The notes under the pieces were generated by a model. That model was given only the letters and a program-made list of their open reading frames with translations, had not been told where the DNA came from and did no database searches. Source: Dictyostelium discoideum (lineage: Eukaryota). Taken from it: a DNA stretch of 64,000 nt. A program made the position numbers and the translations under genes. Positions 7,407-48,882 of the stretch are shown here, piece after piece. Where the stretch lies: positions 1,920,001 through 1,984,000 of the forward strand of contig CM000154.2 in assembly GCA_000004695.1 (NCBI GenBank). Reading direction: 5' to 3'. Each line of letters begins with the position of its first letter. The stretch's first letter is position 1.

Positions 7407-8199
7407 TTTATAAAAAAAAAAAAAGATTTGACTGATGTTGTTATTTTAACTTTTCTTAAAAAAACAACTATATAAAATTAGAATTTAATTGAAAAAAAAA
7501 AAAATCAATAGTTTTTAATTTTTTTTTTTTTTATTTTTTTTATTTTTTTTTTTTTTTTCAATTAAATTCGCAGAATTTGTTATTTTTAAGAATGGAATAA
7601 AAAAAAATTAATTAAATTGTTATAAATCTTTTTTTTTGGTTAGTTAATTAAACTATTTTAAAATTATTTTTATCATTTTATTTTTTAATTTGAATTATTA
7701 TTATTATTATTATTGTTATTATTTTTTTTTTTTTTTTTTCATTTTTTTTTTTTAATATTTATTATTATTATTTATTGTTAATTGAAATATTTTTAAACAG
7801 TTCATTAAAATTAGAAATCAAATAAATAAAAAATAAAAAAAAAATAAAAAAAACAATAAAAATATATCAAAGTTAATAAAGAAAATGATATTCACTCACC
7901 GGATAAGCGTAGGATTTAAAAAAAATTATACCTTAAAAATGAATAAATAAAAGATATTAAAAAAAAAATTAAAAAAAAATATATTTATAGATATATCCAT
8001 AAATAAATTATTTATATTAAAAAAAATAAAAAAAAAATTAAAAAAAAAAAAAAAAAATTAAAAAAAAATATTAATTTCATTTTTTTCATTTTCATTTTAT
8101 CACCCTTTTTTTTTTTTTTTTTTTTTTTATCTTTCATGAATATTTGTATTCATATAAATTACATATAAATTTAAACAATAATAAAAAGAATTTAAAACA

Positions 8200-8230
<31 letters not shown>

Positions 8231-8244
8231 TTTATTTTTAAAAA

Positions 8245-9570
8245 ATGGAAGATAATAATAATAATAATAAATTTAAAAATGAGGAAGAATTAAATCCACT
8301 ATCATTTTCTAGACATAGTATTAGTGGCAGTAGTAATAATAATTTCCAAAAACATCAACAACAACAACAACCAGTAAATAAACCACAATCAATATTAAAA
8401 ACACCTACAAATAGAGATTCAGTTAAAGCTAAACCGACATCTCTTTCTTTGTCAACATCTTCAACATCTTCATCTTCATCATCTTCATCATTATCACTAT
8501 CACCTACTTCTAGTTATTCACCTTCAACAATTTCATCAAAAGTTGGCGGAACATCAAAATTATTATCAACATCTGATTTAGTTACACCAATCAAATCTAG
8601 TGCTAATAATAATATAAATTTACCAACCTTTTTAAATGAATCAACACCACTTCCAAGTCAAACACCAGGAACAAGGAATAGAGTTATGATGTCTGATATT
8701 AAACCAACTGTTCATATTTATCCCTCAACACCTATAGATAAAATTAAACAACCAACAACCATTAAACCAAAGAATACAAATGGTGGTCTATTTAATATTA
8801 ATAAATTTTTAAATCGTAGTAATCATTTAAATTTAAATGATACAACAATTATTGATCAAACTATGAATGATAAAAATTCTGATGATGATGATGATGATGA
8901 TGATAATAATAATAATAATGATAATTATACAGAGGATGAAAATAAAAATAAATCATTTTTCTCAAGCACTAGTAGTAAATTTTATAGAAATAATAATAAT
9001 ATAAATAATAATAATAATAATAATATAAATAATAATTATAATTTATCACCAACATCAGAATATTATCCATCATCATCAATATCATCATCATCATCATCAT
9101 CACTATATAAAACAACGATTGGTGGTAGTGATAAAATAATTAAAAAAAGAAAACCAATAATTAGAAAGAAATCATTAATTACAAAAATTAAAGAAACTAT
9201 AAAATATCCAATTAATAAATTAGATAAAATTCAAGAAGATATTGCTACATTTCATGATAATAAATATTATAAAACTTTAATATATTGTTTAGCATTACTA
9301 TTGAATTTAATTCTATTTAGCTATGCAATTGATTTAATTAGTGGTTTATCAATTGCTTTAGTATTATTATCAATTAGTATAATCAATTCAATATTATTTT
9401 TTAAATCATCAAAGAAATCTTATCTCTATAGATTCGAAGGTACTCAATTAGGTCCAAATATGTCAATTGAACAAATTGAATCAATAATTCCTACTAGTGG
9501 TGCTTATGGAAATGAAACAAAAGATAATGTTGTAGTTTTAAAAATTTGGAATCCAAGTTTGTATTTTTAA
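8245..9570 (+). CDS. hypothetical S/T/N-rich protein with C-terminal transmembrane segments
   Basis: 441-aa ORF. Hydrophobic stretches LIYCLALLLNLILFSYAIDLISGLSIALVLLSISIINSILFF lie near the C-terminus. A possible GT...AG intron at about 9556-9680 would add an exon encoding ...EFPSKILFNFFSPLHVLMMILSSPEFEKF. No recognisable catalytic motif. Confidence 0.45.
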   Translation: MEDNNNNNKFKNEEELNPLSFSRHSISGSSNNNFQKHQQQQQPVNKPQSILKTPTNRDSVKAKPTSLSLSTSSTSSSSSSSSLSLSPTSSYSPSTISSKVGGTSKLLSTSDLVTPIKSSANNNINLPTFLNESTPLPSQTPGTRNRVMMSDIKPTVHIYPSTPIDKIKQPTTIKPKNTNGGLFNINKFLNRSNHLNLNDTTIIDQTMNDKNSDDDDDDDDNNNNNDNYTEDENKNKSFFSSTSSKFYRNNNNINNNNNNNINNNYNLSPTSEYYPSSSISSSSSSSLYKTTIGGSDKIIKKRKPIIRKKSLITKIKETIKYPINKLDKIQEDIATFHDNKYYKTLIYCLALLLNLILFSYAIDLISGLSIALVLLSISIINSILFFKSSKKSYLYRFEGTQLGPNMSIEQIESIIPTSGAYGNETKDNVVVLKIWNPSLYF

Positions 9571-9837
9571 AATTAATAATTAATTAATTAATTAAATAAT
9601 AATTAATTAAATAATTAAATATTAATATCTCTTTTTTTTTTTTTTTTTTTTTTTTTCTTTTTTCTCATACAAATATTTATTTAGAATTTCCTTCAAAAAT
9701 TTTATTCAATTTCTTTAGTCCATTACATGTTTTAATGATGATTTTATCAAGTCCTGAATTTGAAAAATTTTTAACTTTTACAATTTTATCAATTATAATT
9801 TCATTAATGGTATTTATTTTTATTTTTTATATTTATA

Positions 9838-9874
<37 letters not shown>

Positions 9875-9966
9875 ATTTATATATATATAATTTAAATTAA
9901 AATAATATATATTAACCTTTGTGAAAAAAAAAAAAAAAAAAAAAAAAGTTTTATTTCTTTGGTGAG

Positions 9967-10320
<354 letters not shown>

Positions 10321-10346
10321 TAATAATAATAAAACTTGTAAATATT

Positions 10347-10377
<31 letters not shown>

Positions 10378-10747
10378 ATTTCCCATTTGTAATTGAGATT
10401 TTTTATTTTTTTTAAAAATATTATCTATATATTTTAAAATTTTTAATTTCATCAATTTCAATACCTTGTTTTCTATTTATTTCATTTTGTTCTTCTTGTA
10501 TTCTAATTTTTAAATTCTTTTTCTTTTGTTTTGGAGTATGATTGAATTCAATTACATTTGGGAAAGTGATAAAAAAGACTTTTTTTTTTTAAAAAAAATA
10601 ATTGCAAAATAAAAAATAAATTAAAAAAAAAGGTAAAGTTTAATTGTTAATAGTGATTTTCACAAATTATTTTTTTTATTATTATCATTATTTTTTTTTT
10701 TTTTAATAATAATAATTATTATTATTTAAATACACATACCTTTACTA

Positions 10748-11149
10748 ATATTATTGCACTAAAGACAGATACTAAACCAGCAGGGAAAAATTTACCAGAA
10801 TTTACAAATCTCATTCCCATTATAATTAAAAGTACCAATGATAATGCTAAAATTTATATTAAAAATAAATAAATAAAATGAATATTTAATTTTATTAATT
10901 AATTGATTGATTTAAATAATATATATATGTGTGTGTTGTTTTAATATTTTTTTAAAAATTAAATAAATAATTACCCATTGTTAATTGTGTACCATTCTTT
11001 TTATTGGTGGTAGTAAGGTTAGCACTATAACCAACTAATAAACCACTAAGTAAACCCATGATAAGAGATGGCATTGAATTTGCTTTTAAGTAACCAATCA
11101 ACCCACCAATTGCAAGTAAAATTGCATATGCATAAACTAATGTTGTCAT
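10748..11149 (-). CDS. TMEM14-family small four-TM membrane protein (2 exons resolved)
   Basis: Exon 1 (10973..11149) encodes MTTLVYAYAILLAIGGLIGYLKANSMPSLIMGLLSGLLVGYSANL...TQLTM and ends ATGG|GTAATT. Exon 2 (about 10748..10850) encodes ALSLVLLIIMGMRFVNSGKFFPAGLVSVFSAIILVK followed by a GTATGT donor. It matches TMEM14 motifs GYxKxGSxPSLxAGL and IMGMRFxxSGKFMPAGL. A further short 3' exon is possible. Confidence 0.65.
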
Positions 11150-11529
11150 TTTCTTTTCTTTTTTTTTTTTTAAGTATCTTTTTCAAATTATTATTTTTTT
11201 TTTTGTGATTAAAAATTTTTAATAATATAAAAAAAAACAAAAATAAAAAAAAAAAAAATTGATGATGATTTTTTTGATTTTTAATTTGTAAAAATAAAAA
11301 AAAATAAAAAAAATAAAAAAAAAAAAAAAGAACTGTTGGGAAAAGTCAAAAAAATCATATGATATTTGTCATTAATTTCAAAATAAAATAATAATTTTAA
11401 AAATAATTATATTTATGCGTTTTAGAAAATTCACAAAGGAGTTTTTTTTTTTTTTTTTTTTTTTTTAATGTAAACAAGTTTTACATTTTATTTATTTATT
11501 TAATTATTTATTTATTTTTTATATTATAA

Positions 11530-11564
<35 letters not shown>

Positions 11565-11769
11565 TCACATAACCTGTTTGAAAAATTCAACTCCTACCAT
11601 AAGAACCTTATAAAAAAAAAACTCCTTTGTGGTTACCTTACATTTAATTTTTAAAAGTTAGGGAAAAAAAAAAATAAAAAAAAAAAAAATGAAAAAAATG
11701 GTAAGAAATATGCAACTAACTCCCGATTATTATTTTTTTTTTTTTTTTTTTTTAATACTTTCAACAGGT

Positions 11770-11804
<35 letters not shown>

Positions 11805-11953
11805 AAAAATAAAAAAATTAATTAATTTATCTTTGATTAAAAAAGATGATCGGATAAAATTCAAAGCTTAAAAAAAAAAAAAACCCTCTAAAAGTAAAAG
11901 GAAATACTTCTTTTATTTTAAACTGATAAAAATCCGAAAAGGACCCGAAAGAG

Positions 11954-12007
<54 letters not shown>

Positions 12008-13040
12008 TTTTTTCCCCTTTTTTATTATAAAAGCTTGTCGCCAGAGAAAAATAAAAAAAAAAAAAATAAAAAAACCCGATAATCTCAGATCTGTTGAAAT
12101 GGTAATAAAAGGTTCATAAAAAAAAAAAAAAAAAAAATATCTAATTTACGTTGCAAATTGGGCAATTAACGACGCGTCACTTGTTTTTTTTTTTTTTTTT
12201 TTTTTTCGTGTGATTAATTAACAACATGATTAAAAAAATAAAATGAAAAAAAAAAATAAAATAAAATAAAATAAAAAAAAAAATAAAAAAAATTCTACAA
12301 CCTTGTAAATTAAAAAAAAAAAAAAGGTGGGCATAATTATCAAACTTGGTCCACTTTTCGTAAATTTTTTAAAATTTTTTAAATTTCGTACTATGCGGAA
12401 AAGTCTCTCTTGATTTTTTTTTTCTTTTTTTTTTATACAAAATTTTTTTTCATTTTTTGATAGTAAAAAGATATTTTCATCGAGGCATAATCGAAAAAGT
12501 GGATGGTAGATCCCAGTTAATCGCGATTAAGTTGATTTTTTTTTTTTTTCTTCACTTTTTTTTCACTTTTTTTTATTTTCTTTTTTTTTTTTTTTTTTTA
12601 ATTTTTATTTTATTTTATTTCACAATATTAGGTCGAGTCAACAATTAGATAAACACATTTTAGTGTATTCATAATCTTCTTTTTTTTTTTTTTTCTTTAT
12701 TTTTTAAAATCAAAAAAATCAAATAAAATAAAATTATTCATTTAAATTGCATTTAATAAAAAAAATAAAAAAAATAAAAAAATTAAAAAAAAAATAAAAT
12801 CTAAAAATAGAAAACTATAAATAAAAATTTTGACACCAAACAGAGAAAAAAATAAAAAAAAAAAAAAATAATAAAAAATTATTTTCAAACCAACTTACAA
12901 CACATTACAATTAAAAATAAATAACCTCATATAGTTTATTTAATCCTACTCTCATATTTTATTTCTACAAATTTAAAATAGTCTCAAAATCAATTTTCTA
13001 TTGGTTATTCAAATAATAAAAACAAAAAAAAAAAAAATAA

Positions 13041-13078
<38 letters not shown>

Positions 13079-13711
13079 AAAACTTTCACAAATATACAAC
13101 GAACCTACCAATTTAAGAATAAAATATCTAGCTATATAAGCGAATTATTCACTTTTTTCATATAAATCAATAATCAATAATTAAAAGAATAAAAAAAATT
13201 TAAAAATTTAAAAAATATAAAAATATAATAACAAAAAAAAAAAAAAAAAAAAAATTTAAACATAATAGTAATAAATATTGAATAGAAAAAATAAACAAAA
13301 AAAAAATAAAAATAAATAAATAAATAAATAAAATAATAAATATATAAATAAATAAATAAATAAATAAATATATAAATAAATAATAAATAAATAAATTAAA
13401 TACATTAAATAATTAATTAAATAAATAAAAATAAATAAAAATAAATTAAATAAAATAAATAAATAAATAAATAAATTAACACAAATAAATATATAACTTA
13501 AAAATTAAAAATAAAATTATTAAATAGGAAAATAACAAAAATAATAGATAAAATAAATATAATTAAACTAAAATAAAATAAATTATACCAAACAAAAACA
13601 AAATAACAAATAAAATAATAAAAAGATATTAAAATAAATTAAAAAAAAAATTAAAAAAAAAATAAAAAAAAAAAAAGATAATTTGAATCAAAAATAAATT
13701 GGTTGATTGGG

Positions 13712-13765
<54 letters not shown>

Positions 13766-13768
<3 letters not shown>

Positions 13769-14884
13769 TTAACTCAAGATGAACATAGAGAGGCATGTAG
13801 AGTTTACATGCAAAAATATAGAAGTAAACCAGAGAATAGAGAAAAGATAAGACAACAAAATGCAGAATATAGAAAAAGAAAGAAGCAAGAATCAATTAGA
13901 CAAGTTACAGAGATTGGATCATTAGAAACTACTCTCGATAGTCAAAACTCTAGAATCAGTCAATTGGAAAAACAATTGATTGAATCAAATTTTAAAGTTA
14001 ATTTATTTGAAAAAGAAAAATTAATACCAAAAAATTATTTAAATATTATCAACACTTTAAGATTACAATTAACCAATGCTCAAAATGAAATTGAAGAACA
14101 AAAGAATACAATTTCATTCAATCATCAACAACAACAATCACTTCAACATCAATTACAATCTTTACAATTACAACAACAACAACAATTGGAATTAATAAAT
14201 GCTTATAGTGGTGCCACTAATAATAATAGCAATAATAATTTAACATCACCATCTTCAACTAGTTCATTTTCATTACCACCAACTCCAACTTCTTCAAATG
14301 TTCCATTACAACCATCATTTCAAAGTTCATTCTCTGCTATGAATAGTTTAACAAATGAACAACTTCAACCACAATCACAATCACAATCACAATCACAATC
14401 ACAATCACAATCACAATCACAATCACAATCACAATCACAACAACAACAACAACAACAAAAACAATCACAAAATGTAAATAAAAAACAAAAGATAGTTGGA
14501 TTATTTAATCAAGAATCTAGTCCATCCTCGTCATCATCATCACCATCATCATTTTCAAGTCCACCATCATCTCCTTCACTTCAATATCTTCCATACTCTC
14601 CAGCTTTACCAAATTCAATGACAAATTCTCCATCACCTACTCCAAGTGTAAGCGGTGGTGGCGGTAGTAGTGCTGTATCAACTCCACAAATTTCTTCAAA
14701 TTATTCCAATACAAGTACTGGTAGTTTATCCTCTCTAGTTCCTTTTGAAGAAAATGGCTCAAATATTGTTTCATTTAAACAAACTAATCATTTCACTCTA
14801 GATCTCTTATGTGAGGTACTTCAAAGCGAAAAATCTTTACAGCATACCACCATCACCTTTCCAAGAAAAAAGAAATTTTGGTGA
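13766..14884 (+). CDS. hypothetical protein with an N-terminal basic region plus predicted coiled coil (bZIP-like) and an S/Q-rich tail
   Basis: ORF from ATG at 13766 (MLTQDEHREACRVYMQKYRSKPENREKIRQQNAEYRKRKKQE...). A heptad-like region SLETTLDSQNSRISQLEKQLIES follows. The (CAATCA)n tract at 14378-14437 encodes (QS)n. The bZIP assignment is tentative because the basic region does not match the canonical N-x7-R signature. Confidence 0.5.
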
Positions 14885-15068
14885 TTTTAAAACAAGTATT
14901 GGTTTTGTTTTAAATGATATTAAATTATAAAAAAACAAACAAACCCAAACGAACTAACAAACAACAAGCAAACAAACAATATTTTTTCAATTTTATTTTT
15001 ATTTTTTTTTATATTTCTAATTAATAAAATATTATTTTATTCCATTAATTTATTATATCTTTTGTTTG

Positions 15069-15109
<41 letters not shown>

Positions 15110-16054
15110 CTAAAAATAAAGAATAAATATAAAACATAATCATTATGGTTTAAAAATAATATTTTTTTAAACTATTTTATTTTTATACATTTAATATTTT
15201 ATTTATTTTACTTTTTTTAATTTAATTTATTTTATTATATATTATTTATTTCTTCTTGGTCAGAATCTTCAGAACCTTGGCTTGAATCTTCTTGGTCAGT
15301 TTATTCTTGACCATAATTTTAAAGTTGTTGTTGGAATATTATTTAGCATTTAGTTAAAGAGATCATTAATGTTACTTGGGCCAAAAGTTTTAAAACCATC
15401 TAATAGTTTTGATATTTTTTCCTTTAACCAAACACATTTACGAATAATATTTTTATTTTGTACCCATTATATCAGATAAGCCTTTTAAAAAAATAGTCTT
15501 TCATTCTCTGTCCAGTTTGAACCCTATTTAATTATAATTTGAATAAAAGTATTAATGATGATCACCACTACTTGGTAATTTCTATCACCACTACCCCATT
15601 TTAAAAAATTAATTAAATTGTATTTGTAGAAAAAAGAAAAAATTAAAATTAAATGAAGAAAAAAAAAAAATATAATTTTGGAAAAAAAAAAAAAAATTAA
15701 TTTTGGAAAAAAAAAAAAAATTTAAAATTAATTTACAAGAATTCAACTCCATACACAATTTTATATTTTTTTTTTATTTTTTTTTTTTTATTTTTAAATT
15801 AAGCTTTATAAAATATGTTTATAGTTAAAATTTTTTTTTTTTTTTTTTTTAAATTTTTTTTTTTTTTTTTTTTTTCAAGTTTTTTTTTTTTTATTTCTAT
15901 AAAATAAAAATACAAACATATAAATTCAATTTATACAAATAAATAATAAAAGATAAAAAAAAAAAAAAAAAATGGAATTTTTGTAAGTGTAATTTAAAAA
16001 ATTATAAAAACAATATATTATGAGGAAGAATTTTTTTTTTTAGATAAAACAATA

Positions 16055-17609
16055 AACTTTGTAATGCAATAAATTTGCATCATAAAAAACTTTAATATCA
16101 TGGATTTGGTTGAGAGAATGGTAACCAATGGGAAAATTAAAGAAATATTACCAAAGTTAATATCAACAAAACAAATTCATGAAGAAAAGATTTTATTTTT
16201 AATTAATTTAATTTTAGTATTGTTGGAATCTATTAATTTCATTAAAATTGATAAATAGATAGAGAATTTTAACAATAACACCAATTAATGAAAATAGATT
16301 TAATTTATTGAATGATTATTGGCAAATGTTATTAGAAAATCATCAGTTTTTAAATAATCATTTTATTGAAACAGGAGTATATAATAATTTAATAATCAAT
16401 AAAGATACGTTTGAAAGTGAAGGCAGATTAGAACAAATTCAATTTTATACTCTAGTACATCCAATAATTTGCAAAAACTGTATCAGAAACATTAGCTCAT
16501 AATGCCAAAAATAGATTCAATGATTCAACCATAACTCCAAATCAAATTGTAGACCATACTCGTTTGCTCAATGGTACATGTGAATCTACTTTTTGAATGT
16601 TGAAAAATGGACAATGGATAGAACATGACCAGAGCTCAGTGCTTATATGAACTCATTTAGATCATTCTCTATGCAATGTGTCCAATCGACCACCACTTGG
16701 GATTCAACAACCATTAGAAGAATACCATATTATCGTGATGAACCAGAATATGATACTGAAACTAAATTGGAATTTATTAGATTATTTTTTAATAGTTTGA
16801 CAAATCAATTCTCTAAAAGAACCTTTACAAGAAATGAAAATAAGCAACCATTTGAATCCGAAATGGTAAATCAATTCAATGATAGCAAATTAAAATTAAA
16901 TTATTGTTTAAAATTAGTTAGAAACAATTTCTTGTGCGAAACTGGTAAATTTCAACTTTCAATCAAAGGTTTGTCCAAGTCCCACACCAAGAAAAAAGAG
17001 CAATTTCAGTAAATATAGCAAGAAAATGTATAGGTTATAATGAAGATTCTCGTTTAGATGCTGTAATTTTTCAAACATCTGATTTTCGCCGTAAAGTTAT
17101 ATTTAAAGAAGAAGTTGCCAACTATGAATTTACTCCAAGTTTGGTAAATGAATCAATTAAAATAAAGAATGAATGTGAAGATTTAACACTTCTCCTCAAT
17201 GAAAGAAGATTGGTTCTAAATCAAAATCCAATTTTGTTATCCCAACTAATCGATTTGGCATCAATTATTAAAAATGAAAAACACGAATATAATGCGTTCA
17301 AATAAAATTTCTAATCAACTTAGAATGCAATAATCAAAAATAAAGAATTATTCTGATTCATATTTTGAAAAGGCAAATACTTTCAAATTTAATAAATCAA
17401 TTGTTTCAGAGATTGAAGTCAAATAATTTAATTGAAAGAGAAGGTCTTCCCAATAAATTAGAAAACCTAGATATGGAAAATATTATTGGTTTATATGAAA
17501 TTGAATCTTCAAATGATAATATGGAATGAAAATCCAAATCTATAATTTATTATTGAGGCTTGAACATTATGTGAATCTAATTTTTGTTATAGTGTCATTT
17601 CTGGTTTCA
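16055..17609 (+). repeat. copy A of an unidentified dispersed repeat family (normal-complexity sequence with broken ORFs)
   Basis: Unlike the AT-homopolymer intergenic DNA elsewhere, this segment has codon-like complexity with multiple interrupted frames (ORFs 16308..16502, 16647..17012). 16055-16160 is homologous to 19958-20060; 17380-17540 to 21690-21860; and 17050-17400 to the reverse complement of 21870-22110. Confidence 0.6.
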
Positions 17610-17770
17610 NNNNNNNNNNNNNNNNNNNNNNNNNNNNNNNNNNNNNNNNNNNNNNNNNNNNNNNNNNNNNNNNNNNNNNNNNNNNNNNNNNNNNNNNNNN
17701 NNNNNNNNNAAAATTAGATTCACATAATATAATGTTCAAGCCTCAATAATAAATAATAGATTTGGATTAT
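17525..17770. repeat. imperfect palindrome (inverted repeat arms of about 60 nt) centred on an assembly gap
   Basis: 17525-17585 (aatccaaatctataatttattattgaggcttgaacattatgtgaatctaatttt) is the reverse complement of 17710-17770 (aaaattagattcacataatataatgttcaagcctcaataataaataatagatttggatt). The 100-N gap at 17610-17709 sits exactly at the centre. Confidence 0.75.
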
Positions 17771-18699
17771 TATCAAAAAAAATGGCTGATATAATTAAAA
17801 ATTTATAAATAATAATAATAAATATAATAAAAAAATAAATAAATAAATAAATAAAATTTTAAATAATAAAAAAAAATTAAGAAAAAAAAGGTTAACAAAT
17901 TGAAGCCTTAATATTTATAAATAATAAAAAAAAAAAAAAAAAGTAAGAAAACATTAATTAACATCACATCAAATTTGTTTCGTCAACTTTTTAATTTAAA
18001 TTTAAATGAAGAGATAGAAAATTTAAAATCTGCATATATGCTTATATTGGGAATTAAATCTTTTTAAATGGTTTCAAGTTGGCCCGTTGTAAATGAAATA
18101 ATTGATCTTGAAATTACTGTTGATATTGTAATAGTAATTTCTGTTGTTTTTCTATTTACTGTGAGATTGGTGACATTGTTTCATTATTATTATTATTTTG
18201 TTGACCAGTTATCATTGGCCCATTATCCTCATTATTATAAACTTATTTAATAAACTAATTAAATTAAATAAATTATTACTATTATTAAAGGAAGAAGAAA
18301 ATCTTGTAAATCAAACTCTGGATTTATTTGAAAAAACGGCCCTTGATTTTTTCAAAATATTTTTTAAAAAAAAAAAAAATTAAATGTATAATTATCTAAA
18401 AACAAATTTTAATAATTTAAGATCAAGATTTTGTACCATATCTGTTCTTTTTATTTTTAGATACACTATTTAAATGTTTTAGAATATGTTGAGTTAATAA
18501 AATTACATTTTTTAAAAAAAAATATTTGAACAGATTGGGTAAAAAAAAAAAAAAGAAATTAAAATATTTTTTTAAAAAATTCAGGAATAAATTAATATTT
18601 TATTAATTAGAAATATAAAAAAAAAAAAAAAAATTTAAATGAATAAATAATCTACAAATAAAATTATTTATAATTTTGATTATTCTTTGCAACAATTTT

Positions 18700-19135
18700 T
18701 GATATTTTGAGAGAGCTTTACAGCAATTTCAATAATACTGTACAGTCCATCTTTTTTCGAAATTCTTATCAATTGTAATCATGATAGTTTGCAGTTAGAA
18801 CAATGGCAGTAACTGCTGGTGAAACATCACGAAGAAGGGTATATGCAACACGTTGAACATCAGCAACTGTGATTTCATTAATACGTGTGTATACCTCAAA
18901 TGGTGATAAACGACGACCTAAAGTTAAAATTTGACGACCAATGCCTTCGCAAACTTTACTGGTACCATCGTATTGCATTAATGTGGTAGCTAAAAGTTTT
19001 TGTTTGTTACGTTCTACCTCATTTTTATTGCAACTAGTTGCGATTCTTTGCCACTCCTTCAAACATTTCAGCAACTAAATCATCAACACGTTCTGGTTGA
19101 CAAACACCATAGTTACCAAAAGAGAAAGAACAAAC
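18700..19135 (-). pseudogene. duplicated 3' fragment of the mitochondrial processing peptidase beta gene (mppB pseudogene fragment)
   Basis: 18780-19125 is near-identical at the nucleotide level to 22900-23225 of the intact gene. ORF 18769..19074 encodes LKEWQRIATSCNKNEVERNKQKLLATTLMQYDGTSKVCEGIGRQILTLGRRLSPFEVYTRINEITVADVQRVA..., matching mppB residues about 284-384 with a premature stop. 18700-18780 is more diverged. Homology includes the stop codon and about 20 nt of 3' UTR and ends abruptly at about 19125. Confidence 0.85.
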
Positions 19136-19511
19136 AAAAAAATAAACAAACAAACAAACAAACTAAACAATAAGCTTGGTTTTTTGGTTTGTTTGTTTGT
19201 TTGTTTGCTTGTTGTTTCCTAAACTTTTAATGAATTCTCTTTATATTACATGTAATCTAATTCTTTTTTGCCAGGACTCCTTCAAGAACTTAAAACTTTA
19301 AAATGCCATATTATTCGGACAAATTGGACAAAATCTTAGAAAATAGTTTTTTGGAACAAAAGAAATTGAAATACCAGTTACTCTTTTATGTATAAAGATT
19401 GGTTGATTGCTTTTGTTTTTTAAAAAAAAAAAAAAAAAAAACGCACACTTATAAAAATAGGTAATAACTATTTATTTTTATTTTTTATTCTATCCTCCCT
19501 TTTATCTTTTG

Positions 19512-19545
<34 letters not shown>

Positions 19546-19957
19546 CAATTGGATAAATAAATGAAAATAAGAAATTTAAAAAACTAAAAAAAAAAAATAA
19601 TAATAATAAAAATCCCAACTCAATTTATATTATACAAACGTATTTTTTATATTTTAAAAAAAAAATTTGAAAATTTATATATTTTAAAGGAAAAAAAATT
19701 CTTATCTAACTGTTTTTATTCTGTTCAAAATATAAAAATGTATATTACTTGTTTTGGTGATTTTTTTTTTAATATTCTATTTATTATATTCATTTTTTGG
19801 ATTTTAGTCATTTTTTGTATATTTTACATATTTTATACTATCATTTTGGGTTGAAGTGAAGTAAAATAAAATTTTGCTACCTATTATGGAAAGGGATCAT
19901 ATAGGTTTAAAAATAATGATTATTATTTGGATAATCTAAAATATAAAATTAAAATAG

Positions 19958-20987
19958 TAATGCAACTAATTTTGCTTTTTAATAATGGATTTGGTTAAGA
20001 GAATGGTATCCAATTGAAGAATTATAGGAATGTTACCAAGTTTTTACCAACAAACATTAAAATTGATATTGAGTTTTTAACAACTACACGTGTAGTATAC
20101 TAATAAATGAAAAATTAAAATATTTCAAAAATTAAATCAATTTCTTTTTATTTTATCATTATATTATATAGTTTTGGAATAGACTATATGTTTAAATAAT
20201 AATAGTAAAAAAAAAAATAATGGTTAAAAAATATTTACATTCAAACAATTAATCCATCAAAACTCAAACATTCTTCACGACCACTGAGAAAAATTTTAAC
20301 TTAGGCACTATAAGCCCCAACAGCCCAAACTGAATTGTAAAAACCTTGTAAGGGCTGTTCTTAACCCTTATGAATGATGTATGGGCTGCTTGCAAAGTTT
20401 CAAATTTTGCACGCAGCCCGTACAGTCTTTTAAAGGGTTGTGTAAAGCCCTTACAAGGTTTTTTAGATATTTGCTAACAACAATAATACTTAAAAAAAAA
20501 AAACGGTTGCACAACCCATTCAAATTTTTAAAAAAAATTATTCAAACGAAAATTCAATATTAATAAATATATATGAAATTTCATATTTATATAAAAAAAT
20601 AATCAAAATAAATACAATAATTTATAATTTTTTTTTTTTATATAAAAAAATATAAAATCAAATAAATATAAATATATTTTTATCTATTTTAAATTTTATA
20701 TAAATTTTTTTTTTTTTTTTTTTTTTCTATTTATTTGATTTTATTTGATTTTTTTATTTTTGACCTAAAATAAATGTAAAGTTATTAGTTAAAGTTATTA
20801 GTTTTTTTATTTTTTTTTTTTATTTATTTATTTTTTTTTTTTTAGGTACTTTAATATTAAAAAAAAAACATGTTATTTTTTAAAAAAAATTTACATTTAT
20901 ATATAGGATATAAATTTTCCTATTTTATTTTATTTTATTTCCTAAATATAAATTCCTATTTTATTTTATTTTATTTATTTATTGGTT

Positions 20988-21069
<82 letters not shown>

Positions 21070-22110
21070 TAATTGACTATAGTATAATAATTTTTGAATC
21101 TATATTTAAATAAAATATAATTGAAAAATATAAAATAAAAACAATATGCAAAGTGATTTTTTATTTTAATTTTGGTAAAGAGAAAATTAAAATTAAAAAA
21201 AAGAAAAAATTAATAATAAAAAATACTACATACATTCAGGTTTTTATTTTTTTTGCAAAGTCACAAACAATATTATCGTATTTTCTTACCAAATGTTTAA
21301 ATAAATAAATTTATTAACAACGATTAAATATTGTTTATTTTTTAAATACATTTAAAAAAGAAAAAATTATAAACCTTGTTATTGCCCATTTTAAAAAAAA
21401 CCTTTGGAATCTTTGCAGTACATTTTTTTTTTTAAAAAAAAAAAATACCTTGTATTAGCCCGGTTGGGACGAATAGACCGTTCAGCCATTTAGTCCATTT
21501 TTTTTTTTTTAAAAAAAAATTTTTTAAGGACTGTCAACCGGGTTTATACAAGCCCTTATAAGAGATCATGGCTTGGTCGTGTTGTAAAATAATATATAAA
21601 CAATAAAATAAAATAAAATAAAATAGAAAAAAATATTAAAATCATTTTAAATCATATAATGTATGTGCCATATTTGATCTTTATTAAACATTATTTTTAG
21701 TTTTTCAGCTGAAGTCAAAATAAATAAGTTAATTGATAGAGAAGGTACCATGAAATTAGAGAAAATAGTTATTGAAAATATTATTAGTTTAAATGAAAAA
21801 GAATTTTCAAATGGATTTATGGAAATTTATTATTTATTAAACCTATATTGTGTCGATTTGAGTGTTTTCATCTTTTCCAAGGATGAATCAGCCAATTTCT
21901 TTATTTTAGAAGTTGCTTTCTAAGTTGACTCTGAGATTATTTCTAATCCATTATGGATTTATATATATGGTTTTTTCTCTTTTACAATATGAAATCTTCT
22001 TTCATTCATCCTTAAATTTAATAAATTCATATAACAAGCTTAGAGAAATTTCATAGTGGGCAACTTCTTCAGAAATATAACTCTACGACGAACATCTGGT
22101 GTAGGACTTT
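19958..22110. repeat. copy B of the same dispersed repeat family, rearranged with an internal inversion and GC-richer hairpin islands
   Basis: See copy A for homology blocks. 21690-21860 (plus orientation) and 21870-22110 (inverted) match adjacent parts of copy A. Hairpin islands lie at 20340-20460 and 21465-21560. Confidence 0.55.
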
Positions 22111-22139
22111 GGACAAACCTTCGAAAGAAATAAAATAAT

Positions 22140-22193
22140 TATCAACACACCAACATAATAATAATATAATGATAATAATAATAATAATAATTA

Positions 22194-22283
<90 letters not shown>

Positions 22284-22310
22284 TAATAATAATAATAAGA
22301 TTACTCAACT
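22140..22310. repeat. (ATT/AAT)n microsatellite
   Basis: ataataataataat... run. A second (ATT)n run lies at 22617-22702. Confidence 0.9.
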
Positions 22311-22611
22311 AAAACATACAAAACACAAATATTAAATAAACGTGAATAAAATAATATATATGAAAATTATAAATATAAATTGTTATTTTAGGGAAAAATA
22401 TCATAAATGCCCAACACATACCAAAACACTCAACGGATGAATATAAAAATAAAGACCAAATATCAATACGAATTAAAACGATTTTAGTATGTTTTTTTTT
22501 TCATTTTATTTTATTATTATTTTTATATATATTATTTTTTAACAGTTTTTTTTTGAGAATGTATGAGTTTAGTGTGGATTAATTGCCTGAATGTATTTAT
22601 GTATTAACCAC

Positions 22612-22701
<90 letters not shown>

Positions 22702-22799
22702 TAATATTATTAATATTATTATTTATTTTTATAAACCTATAATCTGTTCCAATACTAAATAATTTAAAGATAAAAAAAAAAAAAATTAGTAAAAATTTA

Positions 22800-24200
22800 T
22801 TAGTTAAAATTTTTGGAAAAAAATTGAGAGAGCTTCGCAGCAATTTCAATAATACTTACAGTCCAGCCTTTAACAAAATTGTAGTCAGGGTAGTTTGCAA
22901 TTGGGCCAATGGCAGTAACTGCTGGTGAAACATCACGAAGAAGGGTAGATGCAACACGTTGAACATCAGCAACTGTGATTTCATTAATACGTGTGTATAC
23001 CTCAAATGGTGATAAACGACGACCTAAAGTTAAAATTTGACGACCAATGCCTTCGCAAACTTTACTGGTACCATCGTATTGCATTAATGTGGTAGCTAAA
23101 AGTTTTTGTTTGTTACGTTCTACCTCATTTTTATTGCAACTAGTTGCGATTCTTTGCCATTCCTTCAACATTTCAGCAACTAAATCATCAACACGTTCTG
23201 GTTGACAAACACCATAGTTACCGAAAAGACCTGTATCTTGATAACAAGTGAAAAAGGTAGAATAAGATTCTGCAAGATCTTCAGTGGCAACAATTTCACC
23301 AAGGTTTGATGCAATGTTTTTACCGGCGGCAATACCACGATTCCAGTTACCAATCATAGTTTGAATTAATTCTAAAACAAAGTAATCTGGATCAGTCCAT
23401 GGAAGGGCTCTAACAGCAACGGCAAAATGAATCAATGGTTGTTCATCATCACGGACACGGAGTTCTGAACCAATAAAGTCATTGGTGATTGCGGCTCTCT
23501 TTACATCTTTAGAAACTTGTGACATCTTTACGTTTGCGAATTTCTCTTTAACTTGTTCAACGAGTTGTTCATGGTTAACTGCACCAGCAGCAGAGATAAC
23601 TAAACGATCACCAGTATAATTTTCATTGATAAATTCTTGAATTTGTTCACGAGTAATTGATTTAATATTTTCGACTGGACCTAAAATGGTTCTACCTAAT
23701 GCTGAACCTTGGAAAGCGGCGGCGTGTAATTGATCAAAGACAACTTCATCTTCTTTGGATTGAATATAATCGTTTTCACTGAGGATGGTGTCACGCTCTT
23801 GTTCAATTAATGAGGTTTCAAATTTACTATTTTGTAAGATATCAGAGAGGATATCAACGGCATTTGGTACGTTATCTTTTAAAACTTTCATGTAGTAAGC
23901 ACTGTGTTCACGACTAGTGAATGCATTTAAACTACCACCCATATTTTCAATTTCAGTTTCAATTGATTGTGGTGTTGGACGTTTGGCTGTACCTTTGAAA
24001 ATCATATGTTCTAAAAAGTGTGCTACACCATTATTCTTATCAGTTTCATAAACTGAACCACTATCAACCCAAACACCTACACTTGCAACTTCACCATATG
24101 TTTGTTCTGTTGCAACTCTAATACCATTTGATAATGTTGTAATTTTAGTTTCTGGTGAAATCTTTAAATATGATGGGTCAACTGTTTTTCTTGAAAATGA
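22800..24200 (-). CDS. mppB: mitochondrial processing peptidase beta subunit / core-1-like M16 peptidase (3' exon(s); 5' presequence exon not resolved)
   Basis: The minus-strand ORF, extended upstream to an AG acceptor at about 24200, encodes RSFSRKTVDPSYLKISPETKITTLSNGIRVATEQ...VGVWVDSGSVYETDKNNGVAHFLEHMIFKGTAKR (the M16 HxxEH inverted zinc motif, HFLEH), then ...LGRTILGPVENIKSITREQIQEF...NYPDYNFVKGW. The codon usage is GC-richer than the neighbours, suggesting high expression. The upstream exon carrying the initiator Met and targeting peptide could not be placed. Confidence 0.85.
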   Translation of the reverse strand, partial: SFSRKTVDPSYLKISPETKITTLSNGIRVATEQTYGEVASVGVWVDSGSVYETDKNNGVAHFLEHMIFKGTAKRPTPQSIETEIENMGGSLNAFTSREHSAYYMKVLKDNVPNAVDILSDILQNSKFETSLIEQERDTILSENDYIQSKEDEVVFDQLHAAAFQGSALGRTILGPVENIKSITREQIQEFINENYTGDRLVISAAGAVNHEQLVEQVKEKFANVKMSQVSKDVKRAAITNDFIGSELRVRDDEQPLIHFAVAVRALPWTDPDYFVLELIQTMIGNWNRGIAAGKNIASNLGEIVATEDLAESYSTFFTCYQDTGLFGNYGVCQPERVDDLVAEMLKEWQRIATSCNKNEVERNKQKLLATTLMQYDGTSKVCEGIGRQILTLGRRLSPFEVYTRINEITVADVQRVASTLLRDVSPAVTAIGPIANYPDYNFVKGWTVSIIEIAAKLSQFFSKNFN

Positions 24201-25087
24201 TCTCTAAAAATAATTTAAATTTTTATGTATATATATTTTTTATAATTATTTTTGTTAATCATTTGACATTTTTTTTTTTTTTTTTTTTTTTTTTATATAT
24301 TTATTTAATTAAAAATTTAATTATTTTTTTATTTAATTATTTATTTCATTTCATTTCATTCATTTTATTTATTTATTTTTTAAATATTTTTTTTTTTTTT
24401 TTGAAAGTGTGGTGAAGGTATTATAAAAAAAAAAAATTATGAGGCAAAAAAAAAAAATATATATATATATTTGTTTACACTACACCATAGTTATATAATC
24501 GATTAAAAAGAAGATTTAGATTTTTTTTCTTTTTTTATTTTTTCCTTAAAAATTATTTTTTATTTTTTTTAGTCTTTTTTTATTTGTGTGGTGGGTGAAT
24601 TAAAATAAAAAAATAAAACAATAGTTTTTTTATATTTTTAGTATAAAAACTATATTATTTCATTGAAACCTACAGAAAAGTTTTTAGTTGATTTAACAAA
24701 TAATTTGGTGATATTTGACATTCTATAGAAATTAATAATATATACTATTATGTTTATATACAACTCGAAAAATGATCAAAAATTTAAAAAATTAAAAAAA
24801 AAAATAAAAAAAAAAAAAAAAAAAAAAAACCAAAAAAAAAAAAAAATTAAAAAAATTAAAAAAAAAAAAATTTCGAAAAATGTTGAAAAAATTTTTTAAT
24901 GATACAATGAACTTCTGAATTAATATGCAAAAAAAAAAAAAAAACTAAAACACTAAAAATTAAAAATTTCATTGAAAATTTAATTAATCAAATTTAATTT
25001 AATCATTTTTTTATATTATTTATTTTTTCAATAATTAAAATGAATAATCGTTAAATTGAAAAAAAAATAAAAAACAATTTTCAAAAA

Positions 25088-25141
<54 letters not shown>

Positions 25142-25339
25142 CTTAAGTCTCAGTAACAAACTATTGAAATTTGGTCAAATACCCCAAATTAGTTTTTTTT
25201 TTTTTTTTTTTTTTATCTTTATTCAAAAAAATAAAAATATAAAAAAACAAATTCAAATTTAAATCTGATAAATTTGGGTGAAAATAAAATAATAAATATA
25301 TAAATAAATAAATAAAAAAAATAAGGTAATTAATAATTG

Positions 25340-25672
25340 ATATCGTTTTTTTTTTTTTTTTTTTTTTTAAAAAAAATTCCCCAAAAAAAAAAAAAAAAAA
25401 AAAACCAAAAAAAATTAAAAATTAAAAAAAGGGGGTTAAAAAAAAAAAAAAAAAAAATTTTTTTTAAATGGGGGGGGGGGAAATTTTTGGGGTTTTTTTT
25501 TAAAGGGAAAATAAACAAAAATTTTTTGGGAAATTCCCAAAAATTAAGGGGAAAAAAAAAAAAAAATTTCCCAAATTTTTTTTTTTTGGGGGGAAAAAAA
25601 AAAAAAAGGAACCCCCCCCCCCTTGGAAATTTTAAAAATTACCCAAAAAGGGAAAAAAAAGGGGGGGGGGGG

Positions 25673-25724
<52 letters not shown>

Positions 25725-25760
25725 CTTTAAAAATTCATTTTTTTTTTTTTTTTTTTTTTT
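25340..25760. other. probable low-quality sequence (G/C homopolymers inside A/T runs)
   Basis: Strings such as aatggggggggggaaatttttggggttttttttt and aaaaggaacccccccccccttgg. The ORFs called here (25337..25804 and others) are poly-K/F artefacts. Confidence 0.5.
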
Positions 25761-25872
25761 ATTTATTATTATTTTTATTTTTTGATATTAGCCAAATCAT
25801 ATAAAATTGTTTGTATTAAATATTTTAATCAAAAACCTTTAATATTACTTTTATATAATAATAATTATAATA

Positions 25873-25923
<51 letters not shown>

Positions 25924-25925
25924 TT

Positions 25926-25958
<33 letters not shown>

Positions 25959-26095
25959 TTTTAATTAAAATATTTTGAACATATACTTATTTTTTTTTTT
26001 TAAAAAAAAAAAAAAAAATTTTTTTTTAAAATTATTTTAGATATTTTTTAATTTTATTTGTAAATAATTAATTTGTATTTTTAAAAAAAAAAAAG

Positions 26096-27490
26096 ATGTC
26101 AGAAGCAACTATTGTTGAATTATTAAAAAGATTAGATCAAGCAACTACTCGTTTAGAAGCAGTTGAAAAATCAATTGCATCAGGTGTTGCATCATCATCA
26201 TCATCATCATCACCATCAAGTGGTGCAGCTGGTCCATCATCAGCATCAGTTAAGGAATTCCAAAATTTAGTTGATCAACATATTACACCATTTGTTGCTC
26301 TTTCAAAGAAATTAGCACCAGAAGTTGGTAATCAAGTTGAACAATTAGTTAAAGCCATCGATGCTGAAAAGGCCTTAATCAACACTGCATCACAAAGTAA
26401 AAAACCATCTCAAGAAACTTTATTAGAATTAATTAAACCATTAAATAACTTTGCCGCTGAAGTTGGTAAAATTAGAGATAGCAACCGTTCCTCAAAATTC
26501 TTTAACAATCTCTCTGCTATCAGTGAATCAATTGGTTTCCTTAGTTGGGTTGTAGTTGAACCAACTCCAGGTCCACATGTTGCAGAAATGAGAGGTTCAG
26601 CTGAATTCTACACTAATCGTATCTTAAAAGAATTCAAAGGTGTTAATCAAGATCAAGTTGATTGGGTTTCAAACTATGTAAACTTCCTTAAAGATCTCGA
26701 AAAATATATTAAACAATATCATACCACCGGTTTAACTTGGAATCCAAAAGGTGGAGATGCTAAATCTGCTACACCAGCACCAGCTTCATCAGCACCAGCC
26801 GCCCCAGTTGCACCAGCTGTTTCATCCACTCCAGTTGAATCAAAGAAAGGTCCAGGTTTAGGTGCAGTTTTCGGTGAACTTAGCAAAGGTGATGGTGTTA
26901 CCAGTGGTTTAAAAAAAGTTACCAACGATATGAAATCCAAAAATTTCACCGACAAATCATCAGTTGTTAAAGCTGCTGATACTAAAGTCGCCAAAGTTGA
27001 TGCTCCATCTAGACCAGCCGTTTTTGCTCTCCAAGGTAACAAATGGTCCATTGAATATCAAGTTAACAACAAAGAAATTGTCATTGCCGAGCCAGATAGT
27101 CGTCAAACTGTTTACATTTTCCAATGTGTAAACTCTTTAGTTCAAATCAAAGGTAAAGTTAATGCAATTACTCTTGATGGTTGTAAAAAGACTTCAATCG
27201 TTTTCGAAAATGCCATTTCCTCTTGTGAAGTTGTCAATTGTAATGGTGTTGAAATCCAAGTCACTGGTCGTGTACCATCAATTGCTATCGATAAGACAAG
27301 TGGTTGTCAAATTTATCTCTCTAAAGATTCTTTAGAAACTGAAATCGTCTCTTCAAAATCATCTGAAATGAATGTTTTAATTCCAGGTGCAACTGAAAAT
27401 GATGATTTAGTTGAATTAGCTATTCCAGAACAATATAAAACTTCTGTTAAAGGTAATAAATTACATACTGAATCAACTTCACATATTTAA
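26096..27490 (+). CDS. cap: adenylyl cyclase-associated protein (CAP), single exon, 464 aa
   Basis: Full-length ORF. The N-terminal helical domain starts MSEATIVELLKRLDQATTRLEAVE. A central Pro/Ala-rich linker (ATPAPASSAPAAPVAPAV) is followed by a verprolin-like PGLGAVFGEL and a C-terminal beta-helix (CARP) domain (...NKWSIEYQVNN...VQIKGKVNAITLDGCKKTSIVFENAISSCEVVNCNGVEIQV...). GC-richer codon usage is typical of an abundant cytoskeletal protein. The length matches Dictyostelium CAP. Confidence 0.93.
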   Translation: MSEATIVELLKRLDQATTRLEAVEKSIASGVASSSSSSSPSSGAAGPSSASVKEFQNLVDQHITPFVALSKKLAPEVGNQVEQLVKAIDAEKALINTASQSKKPSQETLLELIKPLNNFAAEVGKIRDSNRSSKFFNNLSAISESIGFLSWVVVEPTPGPHVAEMRGSAEFYTNRILKEFKGVNQDQVDWVSNYVNFLKDLEKYIKQYHTTGLTWNPKGGDAKSATPAPASSAPAAPVAPAVSSTPVESKKGPGLGAVFGELSKGDGVTSGLKKVTNDMKSKNFTDKSSVVKAADTKVAKVDAPSRPAVFALQGNKWSIEYQVNNKEIVIAEPDSRQTVYIFQCVNSLVQIKGKVNAITLDGCKKTSIVFENAISSCEVVNCNGVEIQVTGRVPSIAIDKTSGCQIYLSKDSLETEIVSSKSSEMNVLIPGATENDDLVELAIPEQYKTSVKGNKLHTESTSHI

Positions 27491-28903
27491 AAAAAAAATT
27501 TTTTAAATTTATAAATAAAAAAAAAAAAATAAAATAAAAAAATAAAAAAAAAAATTAATAAATTTATATATATATATTTATATGTATTAAAAAAAAAAAA
27601 AAAATGATAAAAAAAAAAAAAAAAAAAATAATAATGATCATTAAACTTTTAACTTAATTTTCATTTTTTTAAATATTTTTTTAATATTGAAAACCACCAT
27701 TTAAATGATTTATAAGGAGAATGGCTATCCATTTGGGTAATTTTGTTATTTTTTTTAACTCAATAGCAATTGCTCACTGCAGAAGGGTAAAGTTTCTCTA
27801 TATTGCTTCTGCTATATTGATTTAGTTGCCACAATCTTATTCTATTATTATTTTTAATAGTGCTTGTAAAAAAAAAAAAAAGAAAACAATGATCTTCATT
27901 TAATTAATAGTGAGTAGTTTGGTTGTAGAGGGAGTTAAAAGAATTATATTTTATTATATGTAATTATATTTATATTTTATTTATTTATTGAATAACTATA
28001 TTTAATTTATATATCCTTAATAATTTAATTTAGTTTAATTTAATTTTTATTTTAATTATATATTTATTTTTTTATTTAATTTTCTTTTTAACATATTTAT
28101 ATTTAGGAGATAATAAACTGAAAATAAATAAATTTTCATTTTCATTTTATACTATATAAAATGAGTTGACATAATTTACTAAAAGAGAATAATTAAAATA
28201 ATATAATAATTTTGTAAAAAATTAATTTATATTAATTATTGAAAACACTAAAAAAAGAATATATATAGAAACAAATGATTTTAAAATAAGTGAATAATAC
28301 AAAATAATTATTGTAACAAATAACTGTTGGTTTCGTTAAATAGTTGTGAAAAATTACTATCATAAAACAGTTGGTATGGATTCTTTTTTTAATACTTAAA
28401 CCATTTTCAACTCACTCTCTCATACATTGGTTCTTTTTTTATTTTCACCCTCTAAAACTGAACGATGGTAAATATCAATATATAGCATATTTCATTTGAA
28501 CACACCATTTTCCAAACTCTAAAACCAAGTTTTATATTGGTTTTCAAGGTAAATATTGAACAGAAACATAATTCCCATCATAATCAACTATATCCTCATC
28601 GATTGAATTAGAGTTGGTGAAATCAATGATTGGGTGTTGTTTAACATTTTCAAAAAAAAATCTCAAATTTTATAAAGATACTATCACTCAATTCTAAATT
28701 TGGTGTTTGATGGTTTGTGTATACTAGTACCTCTAGAAGGACTAATAGTATTTATTTATTTTAATTATATTTATTTTTTTATTTATTTTATTTTATTAAT
28801 TCTATTTTTTTAAAAATATCTTTAATTAATTTATTTAACCTTAATTCTTTAATTTTAATAAATTTAATTTTAACATTAATTTATTATTTATTTATTTTAT
28901 TTT

Positions 28904-46630: not shown

Positions 46631-47178
46631 TCAAAAATTAAAGGTAACTTTAATTCTATTCTTTTTTTTTTTTTTTTTAAAATAAAACAATAAAATTAAT
46701 GAAAATAAAAAAATTAACTAATTCTTTTTTTTTTAAAATAAAACAATAAAATTAATAAAAATAAAAAAATTAACTAATTCTTTTTTTTTTTTTTTTTATA
46801 AAAAAAATTTTTTTTTTAAAATCTATTCTTTCTTTAAAATAAAAAACAATCACAAAAATTAAAAAAGAAAGTGAAAAAAAAAAAAAAAAAAAAAAATCTA
46901 TAATTAAACTATTGGGAATGGTCCAAAAAAAAAAAAAAAATTACCAAAATTATTGGTTGAACTGAAAAAAAAAAAAAGTGGGGTATTCTATGAAAATATC
47001 TCTAAAGATTTTGGTCAATTTATTTTTTTGGTAGTTTTACCCTATTTAATTTTTTTTTTTTATGGTAATATTAAAAGGAATATTTTTTTTTTTTTATGGT
47101 AACATTAAAAGGAATTTTTTTTTTCTACCAATCATTATTTTTTTTATCAAATAAATAAATAATAAACAAACATATACA

Positions 47179-48306: not shown

Positions 48307-48882
48307 TCAAAATAAATAATTAAAATAAATAATTTAATATTGGTTTTGTTTTGGTTTGTGTTTTTCCTGTTAATGTTAATTTTTTTTTATTATAAGGAGA
48401 CCTTTTTTTTTTTATTATTTATCATTCATTTCTTATAACTTGTTTTTTATTTTGAAAAATAGATTTAAAATAAAAAAAAAAAAAAAAAAAATTATAATTA
48501 TTATAAATTCTTCATAGAATAGAATTTAAAAAGTACTTTTTGATTTGGAAAAAAAAAAAAAAAAAATAAAAAAAAAGTTTTTAAAAAAAAAAAAAAAAAA
48601 TGTTTGAAAATGGAAATTTTTTTTTATTTCTAGTTAGATGTGTGTCTTTTTCAACTTACTTTTTTAAGTGGTTAACTGGATGAATTTATTATAATTATTC
48701 TTTTTTTTTTTTACAAAGGTAATGAAATATAAATTTTTTTTTATTTTTTTTTTTTTTGTTATAAAAAGGAAATTTTTTTTGTTATTTAAACCCAATTTTT
48801 TTTTTTTTTTTTAATATTAATAGTAATTATTTTTTTTTTCCTTCCCTCATTATTTTTTTTAAATAATAAATAAACATATACA

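Follow-up and report, generated by a model that had tools for sequence, protein, structure and literature searches.

The 64-kb window of Dictyostelium discoideum DNA analysed here contains, 4.1 kb from the intact gene mppB, a fragment of about 490 bp that copies the 3′ end of that gene. The fragment itself is an ordinary object, an unprocessed pseudogene fragment, in an instructive setting: taking all lines of evidence together, it is probably the scar of a DNA-level duplication at a rearrangement-prone inversion junction, later partly overwritten by the live gene. Coordinates of the features discussed are collected in Table 1.

For comparison, loci with 10-kb flanks were retrieved via the mppB protein cluster from D. 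discoideum isolates (L002, L003), D. cf. discoideum (L004, L005), D. dimigraforme (L006), D. citrinum (L007, L008), D. firmibasis (L009), and D. purpureum (L010). A further locus, L001, comes from an independent assembly that covers the same region (GCA_054883475.1, contig CM142511.1).

Extent and State of the mppB Fragment

When the window was compared with itself by blastn after low-complexity filtering, the fragment and mppB formed one of the few strong pairs left (18707-19123 vs. 22824-23229, same strand, 93.5% identity over 418 columns, E = 7e-175). This pairwise alignment bears out an earlier, sequence-only reading of the region, which had proposed a same-orientation copy of the mppB 3′ end and had described 18780-19125 as near-identical to 22900-23225, close to the high-identity block that the alignment delimits at 18801-19123. 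The sharp break that had been placed near 19125 falls at 19123/23229, where homology with mppB ends abruptly. In the other direction, local alignment extends the similarity weakly leftward to 18628/22757. An nhmmer profile built from the mppB 3′ ends of ten genomes, whose match reaches 18634, gave two matches and no more across the window: 23300-22722, in the gene, and 19121-18634 (E = 2e-133), in the fragment.

What was copied is codons 343-464 (of 469) together with most of the last intron. Translation showed that the start of the gene is missing, that a 1-nt insertion at 19063 shifts the frame (+1), and that the tail carries stop codons, in agreement with the premature stop and the lack of a functional gene noted earlier. 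The fragment also has a 10-nt insertion, its splice donor is changed from GTAAGT to GTACAGT, and the terminal exon of mppB is unrecognisable in it. It has neither a reading frame nor a known function and is classed as non-functional. Its 101-aa ORF is not on record as a called gene in public assemblies, and a literature search for an mppB pseudogene returned nothing specific. A 100-N gap (17610-17709) lies 1 kb from the fragment. L001 carries the identical fragment at the same place, and matches window positions 17710-21019 at 99.9%, which rules out an assembly artefact as the source of the fragment. For annotation, 18634-19123 can be marked as a pseudogene fragment; how mppB works is unchanged by the finding.

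TABLE 1. Features of the mppB junction in the window, with positions counted from the first nucleotide of the window.
Feature	Position	Strand	Evidence or remarks
mppB 3′ fragment, unprocessed pseudogene piece	18634-19123	-	blastn, nhmmer, translation (frameshift and stops)
Block 1 of fragment: near-identical exon stretch up to the end of homology, putative gene-conversion tract	18801-19123	-	320/322 matches plus two 1-nt indels (98.8%)
Block 2 of fragment: last 47 exon bases plus 10-nt insertion, old and diverged	18744-18800	-	36/47 matches (77%)
Block 3 of fragment: 5′ end of last mppB intron	18707-18743	-	34/36 matches plus 1 indel (94%)
Intact mppB	22737-24721	-	Exon 1, 24721-24674; exon 2, 24203-22860; last intron, 22859-22755; terminal exon, 22754-22737
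Collinear block, P remnant of copy B at 19957-20054	16061-16170 vs. 19957-20054	+	nhmmer E = 6e-07; blastn 82.5%
Collinear block, P remnant of copy B at 21705-21823	17406-17525 vs. 21705-21823	+	nhmmer E = 3e-06; blastn 79%
Collinear block, mppB fragment vs. gene	18664-19120 vs. 22786-23225	+	nhmmer
Inverted block, copy B remnant at 21853-22107	17070-17391 vs. 22107-21853	- (copy B remnant)	nhmmer E = 8e-15
Orphan pseudogene P, copy A	16061-17609	+	Three-frame translation; many frameshifts
Extra copy of the ~80-130 nt following the mppB stop	20145-20275	+ (opposite to gene)	Matches 22556-22638 inverted (blastn)
(CAAA)n-AAGCTT-(GTTT)n palindrome, 95 bp, fused to gene-internal breakpoint 19123	19124-19218	.	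Arms 43-53 nt, 75-84% complementary
(CAAA)n-like tract directly after the stop of the neighbour gene (13703-14884)	14929-14980	+	
Fold-back palindrome at the end of P, centred on the 100-N gap 17610-17709	17526-17773	.	Inverted repeat

The Last Intron of mppB and Its Copy

The spliced translation of the intact gene equals AX4 MppB (P0121, UniRef Q4W6B5) over all 469 residues, and the product of this mitochondrial peptidase gene carries Peptidase_M16 and M16_C domains (Pfam). The last intron is 105 nt long (GTAAGT...TAG), and the 18-nt terminal exon encodes YWNRL and the stop. The stretch at the left of the fragment, which had been read as the stop region with about 20 nt of 3′ UTR, is instead the 5′ part of the last intron, into which the open reading frame continues. 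With intron sequence inside it, the copy must derive from genomic DNA, spliced mRNA being excluded as its template; judged by this content, the fragment is an unspliced genomic copy rather than a retrocopy.

The last intron itself is variable in the comparison set. It is present in the window, L001, L004, L006, L007, and L008 and absent from L002 (site at ~11845-11870), L003 (~11855-11880), and L009 (D. firmibasis, ~11846-11890). In L005 (~11900-12090) the terminal exon is fused to the main exon, and behind it come intron-like sequence and another terminal exon, a degenerate one. In D. purpureum (L010, 12358-12448) an intron sits 10 codons further upstream instead. Two deposited mppB models have aberrant C-termini: that of L004 (10001-12002; P0001, 508 aa) reads through the last intron, and that of L002 (10001-13804; P0122, 514 aa) splices into downstream junk. 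The true products of both should be 469 aa long and end in YWNRL. With this variation, mppB offers a compact case for the turnover of a 3′-terminal intron in a haploid organism with good genetics.

Mosaic Identity and Gene Conversion

The left part of the fragment had already been noticed as more diverged than the rest, and it is, although the alignment resolves a three-step pattern (blocks 1 to 3, Table 1) and not a simple decay toward the outer end. Divergence changes abruptly inside continuous homology, with 2 mismatches in 322 positions of block 1 vs. 11 in 47 of block 2 (Fisher p = 3e-9). Beyond block 3, the similarity over the rest of the intron is barely above that of shuffled controls, 25 of 500 shuffles reaching its score.

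The two exon blocks also differ in the states that they carry. Block 1 shares with the gene a window-specific C (23049/18943) where the intact genes of all eight other genomes have T, together with several states present in just one or two other lineages. In 244 comparable columns there is 1 difference between the fragment and its own gene, compared with 7-12 between the fragment and the genes of sister lineages. In block 2, six changes are private to the fragment, and at six positions it matches other lineages and not the gene of the window (e.g., the older states T at 18799 and C at 18794). Few sites bear on the sharing of derived states. Inside the tract the C at 23049 is shared. The window-specific C at 22905 is not shared, but outside block 1 the fragment does carry the A that is specific to the window at 22891, as well as several intron states of the same kind.

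Because block 1 carries a strain-specific state of the gene while the remainder keeps older states, we favor gene conversion of an old copy. As the simplest reading, the mosaic points to an old fragment that the live gene recently overwrote along its inner 323 bp, an event for which we infer both direction and date. This is the second of the mechanisms that the sequence-only reading had offered, a local segmental duplication followed by partial gene conversion, and it fits the three collinear blocks described below as well as the contrast between the gene state of block 1 and the older states of the tail. Against conversion, a recent re-duplication of just the 323-bp block beside an older relic would give the same mosaic. 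The sharp switch from ~99% to ~77% identity in continuous homology, with a shared strain-specific derived state, is like that of interlocus conversion between genes and pseudogenes; unlike that system, the present case offers one clear shared derived site only, and conversion of the live gene by fragments is a suspicion. The fragment and mppB are a compact pair in which to study such conversion.

The Larger Duplication Unit and Orphan Pseudogene P

Comparison of the units on either side of the breakpoint (14885-19123 vs. 19124-23229; nhmmer and blastn) yielded three collinear same-strand blocks, with offsets of 3.9-4.3 kb, and one inverted block. The blocks other than that of mppB are 79-82% identical, and all are parts of one orphan pseudogene, here called P. 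A search of 5.8 billion proteins found a sole relative of P, the hypothetical protein ACTFIY_002005 of D. cf. discoideum, and the stitched translation of P contains no Pfam domain. P is also found in L004 (13053-13626) and is absent from the corresponding junctions of the outgroup species.

From these blocks we infer a direct duplication in which P and the mppB 3′ end were copied together, in a unit no shorter than 3.2 kb. The co-duplicated pieces of P are only ~80% identical, and the duplication unit would therefore be old. The AT-rich stretches between the blocks fail to align, so the duplication is not demonstrably tandem end to end; two stretches (15125-15370 and 19294-19402) have no partner. 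The extra copy of sequence from beyond the mppB stop (Table 1) has further matches, behind the stop of mppB, in L002, L004, and L005.

The fragment resembles other unprocessed pseudogene fragments that arise by segmental duplication: the intron is retained, the orientation is that of the gene, the distance is a few kb, neighbouring sequence was co-duplicated, and the copy is truncated within an exon and disabled. It differs in being a mosaic in age and in lying at a lineage-specific inversion junction rather than in a plain tandem array.

Palindromes and Microsatellite at the Junction

The palindrome fused to the gene-internal breakpoint is predicted to fold into a DNA hairpin of -25.8 kcal/mol (z = -3.7). 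Elsewhere in the 64-kb window, its (CAAA)n motif occurs only at 14929-14944, in the tract directly after the stop of the neighbour gene, and a 21-mer of this tract recurs in the right arm of the palindrome, as read from the sequences. The (CAAA)n at the same position after the neighbour gene is 157 bp long in L002 and 25 bp long in L003, and in L004 a (CAAA)n tract adjoins the inner end of the mppB fragment. The variants CAAGCAA and CTAAC are common to the post-neighbour tract, the junction palindrome, and the L004 junction, in inconsistent order. Gene and fragment share AAAAGA right before they diverge. The breakpoint may thus contain up to 6 nt of A-rich microhomology, and the pattern as a whole suggests a microhomology-mediated or fold-back junction.

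Of the other palindromes, the one at the end of P is interrupted in the window by the 100-N gap; L001 (16880-17100) closes this gap with ~53 bp, giving a near-perfect palindrome with arms of ~95 bp. A third, hairpin-like palindrome of 125 bp lies at 20339-20463 (62-nt arms, 79% complementary, 1 nt between them) and is relatively GC-rich. It does not occur elsewhere in the window and has no blastn match in related loci L002-L009.

The CAP-mppB Inversion and Its Descendant Junctions

In L006-L010 the gene order is neighbour gene (+), CAP (-), mppB (+), with a PHP-domain gene after mppB in L006-L009 and different genes beyond mppB in D. purpureum. In the window and L001-L005 the CAP-mppB block (~5 kb, window 22676-27626) is flipped between the same flanks. 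Because all five outgroup loci (L006-L010) share the other order, the comparison shows the inverted order to be, as judged from gene arrangement, derived and common to the discoideum clade. The inversion put the 3′ end of mppB tail-to-tail against the 3′ end of the neighbour gene, and the intergenic space at this junction is 2.6-7.9 kb in the discoideum clade vs. 0.13-0.35 kb in L006-L009.

The content of the junction differs among the descendants. No mppB fragment lies within 10 kb of the gene in L002 or L003. In L004 a single inverted fragment lies ~300 bp past the gene, and its inner end corresponds to 23161; L005 has three direct fragments with inner ends near 23015-23037; and the window has its one direct fragment, with the inner end at 23229. 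At alignment column 427, in the tail, all five fragments of the three lineages carry A, as against T in most intact genes, which lends modest support to a single old fragment lineage that was later moved, truncated, and re-copied. Across the L002-L005 junctions the segments are permuted beyond what one inversion or one duplication could produce. In L005 the block that corresponds to window 7959-12525 is inverted as well.

Duplications produced by staggered breaks or fold-back at evolutionary inversion breakpoints have been described for Drosophila and other genomes. The present junction is like them in that a gene-end fragment sits at an inversion junction, that the L004 copy is inverted beside the gene, and that palindromes and a microsatellite occur at the joints. 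It is unlike them in that gene and copy in the window have the same orientation and lie at one end of the inversion, and nhmmer found no inverted mppB copy in the interval separating CAP from the PHP-domain gene, at the opposite end; the window thus lacks the classic staggered-break signature.

A larger parallel within Dictyostelium is the tgrBC locus, a local rearrangement hotspot in which 100-250 kb hold fast-evolving recognition genes (PMC12745789). In the same set of genomes that locus shows repeated local duplication, inversion, and partial duplication that differ by lineage within the discoideum clade, with no enrichment in mobile elements, and the mppB junction is like it in this; unlike it, the junction spans only a few kb, lies next to a housekeeping gene, and has no evident selective benefit. 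It provides a small, fully sequenced example of the aftermath of a micro-inversion, in which the junction went on rearranging in every descendant lineage.

A Divergence Hotspot at the mppB 3′ End

The intact genes of the discoideum clade are themselves unusually divergent at the site of block 2. Over the 48 nt that close the main mppB exon (window 22860-22906 and its equivalents in L002-L005) they show 11, 11, 11, and 8 differences, compared with 0-6 (mean ~1) in all remaining 48-nt windows along the 1344 nt of this exon. Some of these changes are synonymous and others are replacements. The CAP 3′ end, beside the other inversion breakpoint, has no such divergence spike, and the effect is therefore specific to the gene with fragment copies. 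At one position the mppB of the window and all five fragments have a Tyr codon in common; in most intact genes the residue there is Phe, and in D. citrinum it is Trp.

Exchange between gene and fragments would be the most economical cause of this hotspot, 47 nt being too few for proof. A broader version of this idea is that the mppB 3′ end is a clade-wide hotspot of recurrent duplication and conversion, in which decaying fragments, acting as donors, rewrote the final 16 codons of the main exon along with the last intron, separately in each lineage. We consider this version possible but doubtful; it is suggested by the 48-nt spike, the shared Tyr codon, and the lineage-variable last intron, all of which fit.

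Proposed History and Competing Explanations

In the history that we consider probable, the ~5-kb block of CAP and mppB was first inverted, an arrangement seen in the discoideum clade only. The new junction differs by lineage, the window holding at least three palindromes and the (CAAA)n microsatellite. In the window lineage, a direct duplication of at least 3.2 kb, indicated by the collinear homology, would have copied P and the mppB 3′ end. One of its edges would lie inside the main exon at 23229, joined to the microsatellite palindrome, a joint that suggests a microhomology-mediated or fold-back event (replication template switch). The two copies then decayed to the ~80% identity observed, and recent gene conversion from the live gene over 18801-19123 would have restored ~99% identity there. 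Several observations sit less easily with this account. The duplication units align only in three GC-richer blocks. Inner breakpoints and orientation differ between lineages (L004 inverted, 23161; L005 ~23015-23037), so that independent origin or erosion is possible and the events may have had another order. A simple staggered-break model of the inversion, for its part, predicts an inverted copy between CAP and the PHP-domain gene, which is absent.

One alternative would make the fragment a by-product of the inversion itself, formed by staggered breaks or fold-back and brought into direct orientation by a later small inversion, with no separate duplication of 3-4 kb. The inverted L004 fragment, ~300 bp past the gene end and adjoining (CAAA)n, resembles a fold-back product, the L002 segments that match 18004-18080 and 19294-19402 are reversed relative to their flanks and hint at a local inversion in the window, and palindromes lie at 17526-17773, 19124-19218, and 20339-20463. 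We nevertheless judge such an origin unlikely, given that a direct duplication explains the three collinear blocks more simply, that the inner breakpoints vary by lineage (23229, 23161, ~23015-23037), and that the segment order in L002 does not match a simple inversion of the block in the window. Somewhat less likely still is a young duplicate of ~420 bp whose diverged 57 bp are a patch of local damage or error-prone repair, without conversion of an old copy. Such a duplicate would account for the return to 94% identity in block 3, much closer than block 2, which makes the diverged part an island and not the whole outer end, and for its coincidence with the same 48 nt that diverge between intact sister-lineage genes (8-11 differences vs. 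~1 per 48 nt elsewhere). The age of the unit as read from P, the presence in block 2 of states shared with genes and fragments of other lineages and not of private changes alone, and the A at column 427 in all five fragments, which argues for an old common fragment lineage, all weigh against it.

Transport by a mobile element, whether 3′ transduction by a retroelement whose transcript ran on into mppB or retrocopying of the mppB mRNA, we regard as highly improbable. By eye the region is repeat-rich, and an A17 run lies on the + strand beside the outer end of the fragment (~18613-18633), but this run is T17 in the sense of the gene and aligns with the intron's own T14 tract, and is thus no poly(A) tail. 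The nearby ‘repeats’, which make up the repeat cluster of the sequence-only reading, are scrambled pieces of P, co-duplicated with the fragment, and not mobile-element copies. The first 36 nt of the last intron are kept at 94%, with weaker similarity over the rest, which rules out a spliced mRNA as the source. No Pfam match was obtained for nine ORFs of 51-121 aa between 16647 and 21923. TRE-type elements target tRNA genes (within about 50-100 bp), and ARAGORN found no tRNA gene in the 64-kb window. No target-site duplication or direct repeat was seen flanking 18634 and 19123 when the flanks were read by eye, and no retroelement body was found directly upstream of the fragment when coding ORFs were tested by Pfam, the adjacent sequence being the microsatellite palindrome. 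A mobile-element origin was therefore rejected on intron content, the lack of Pfam matches among the junction ORFs, and the lack of a tRNA gene, evidence that covers the coding parts of elements and their tRNA targets. The earlier proposal of 3′ transduction thus finds no support in intron, ORFs, tRNA genes, or poly(A); its companion, template switching, may apply as a replication or repair event at the microsatellite palindrome, but not in its mobile-element version.

Other Features of the Window

Beside the gap near the fragment, the window contains two more 100-N assembly gaps (2406-2505 and 6960-7059). Within a minus-strand ORF (31922-33292), tandem repeats with a period of ~93 bp and 84-89% identity occupy 32268-32909, and they occur in varying register in all related loci. 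The tandem 375-aa ORFs at 47-50 kb were considered as actin genes, a candidate rejected because Pfam places them in the lipoate/biotin ligase family. They form a pair of BPL_LplA_LipB (biotin/lipoate protein ligase) genes (47055-48335 and 48773-50028) with ~90% DNA identity over ~1.29 kb.
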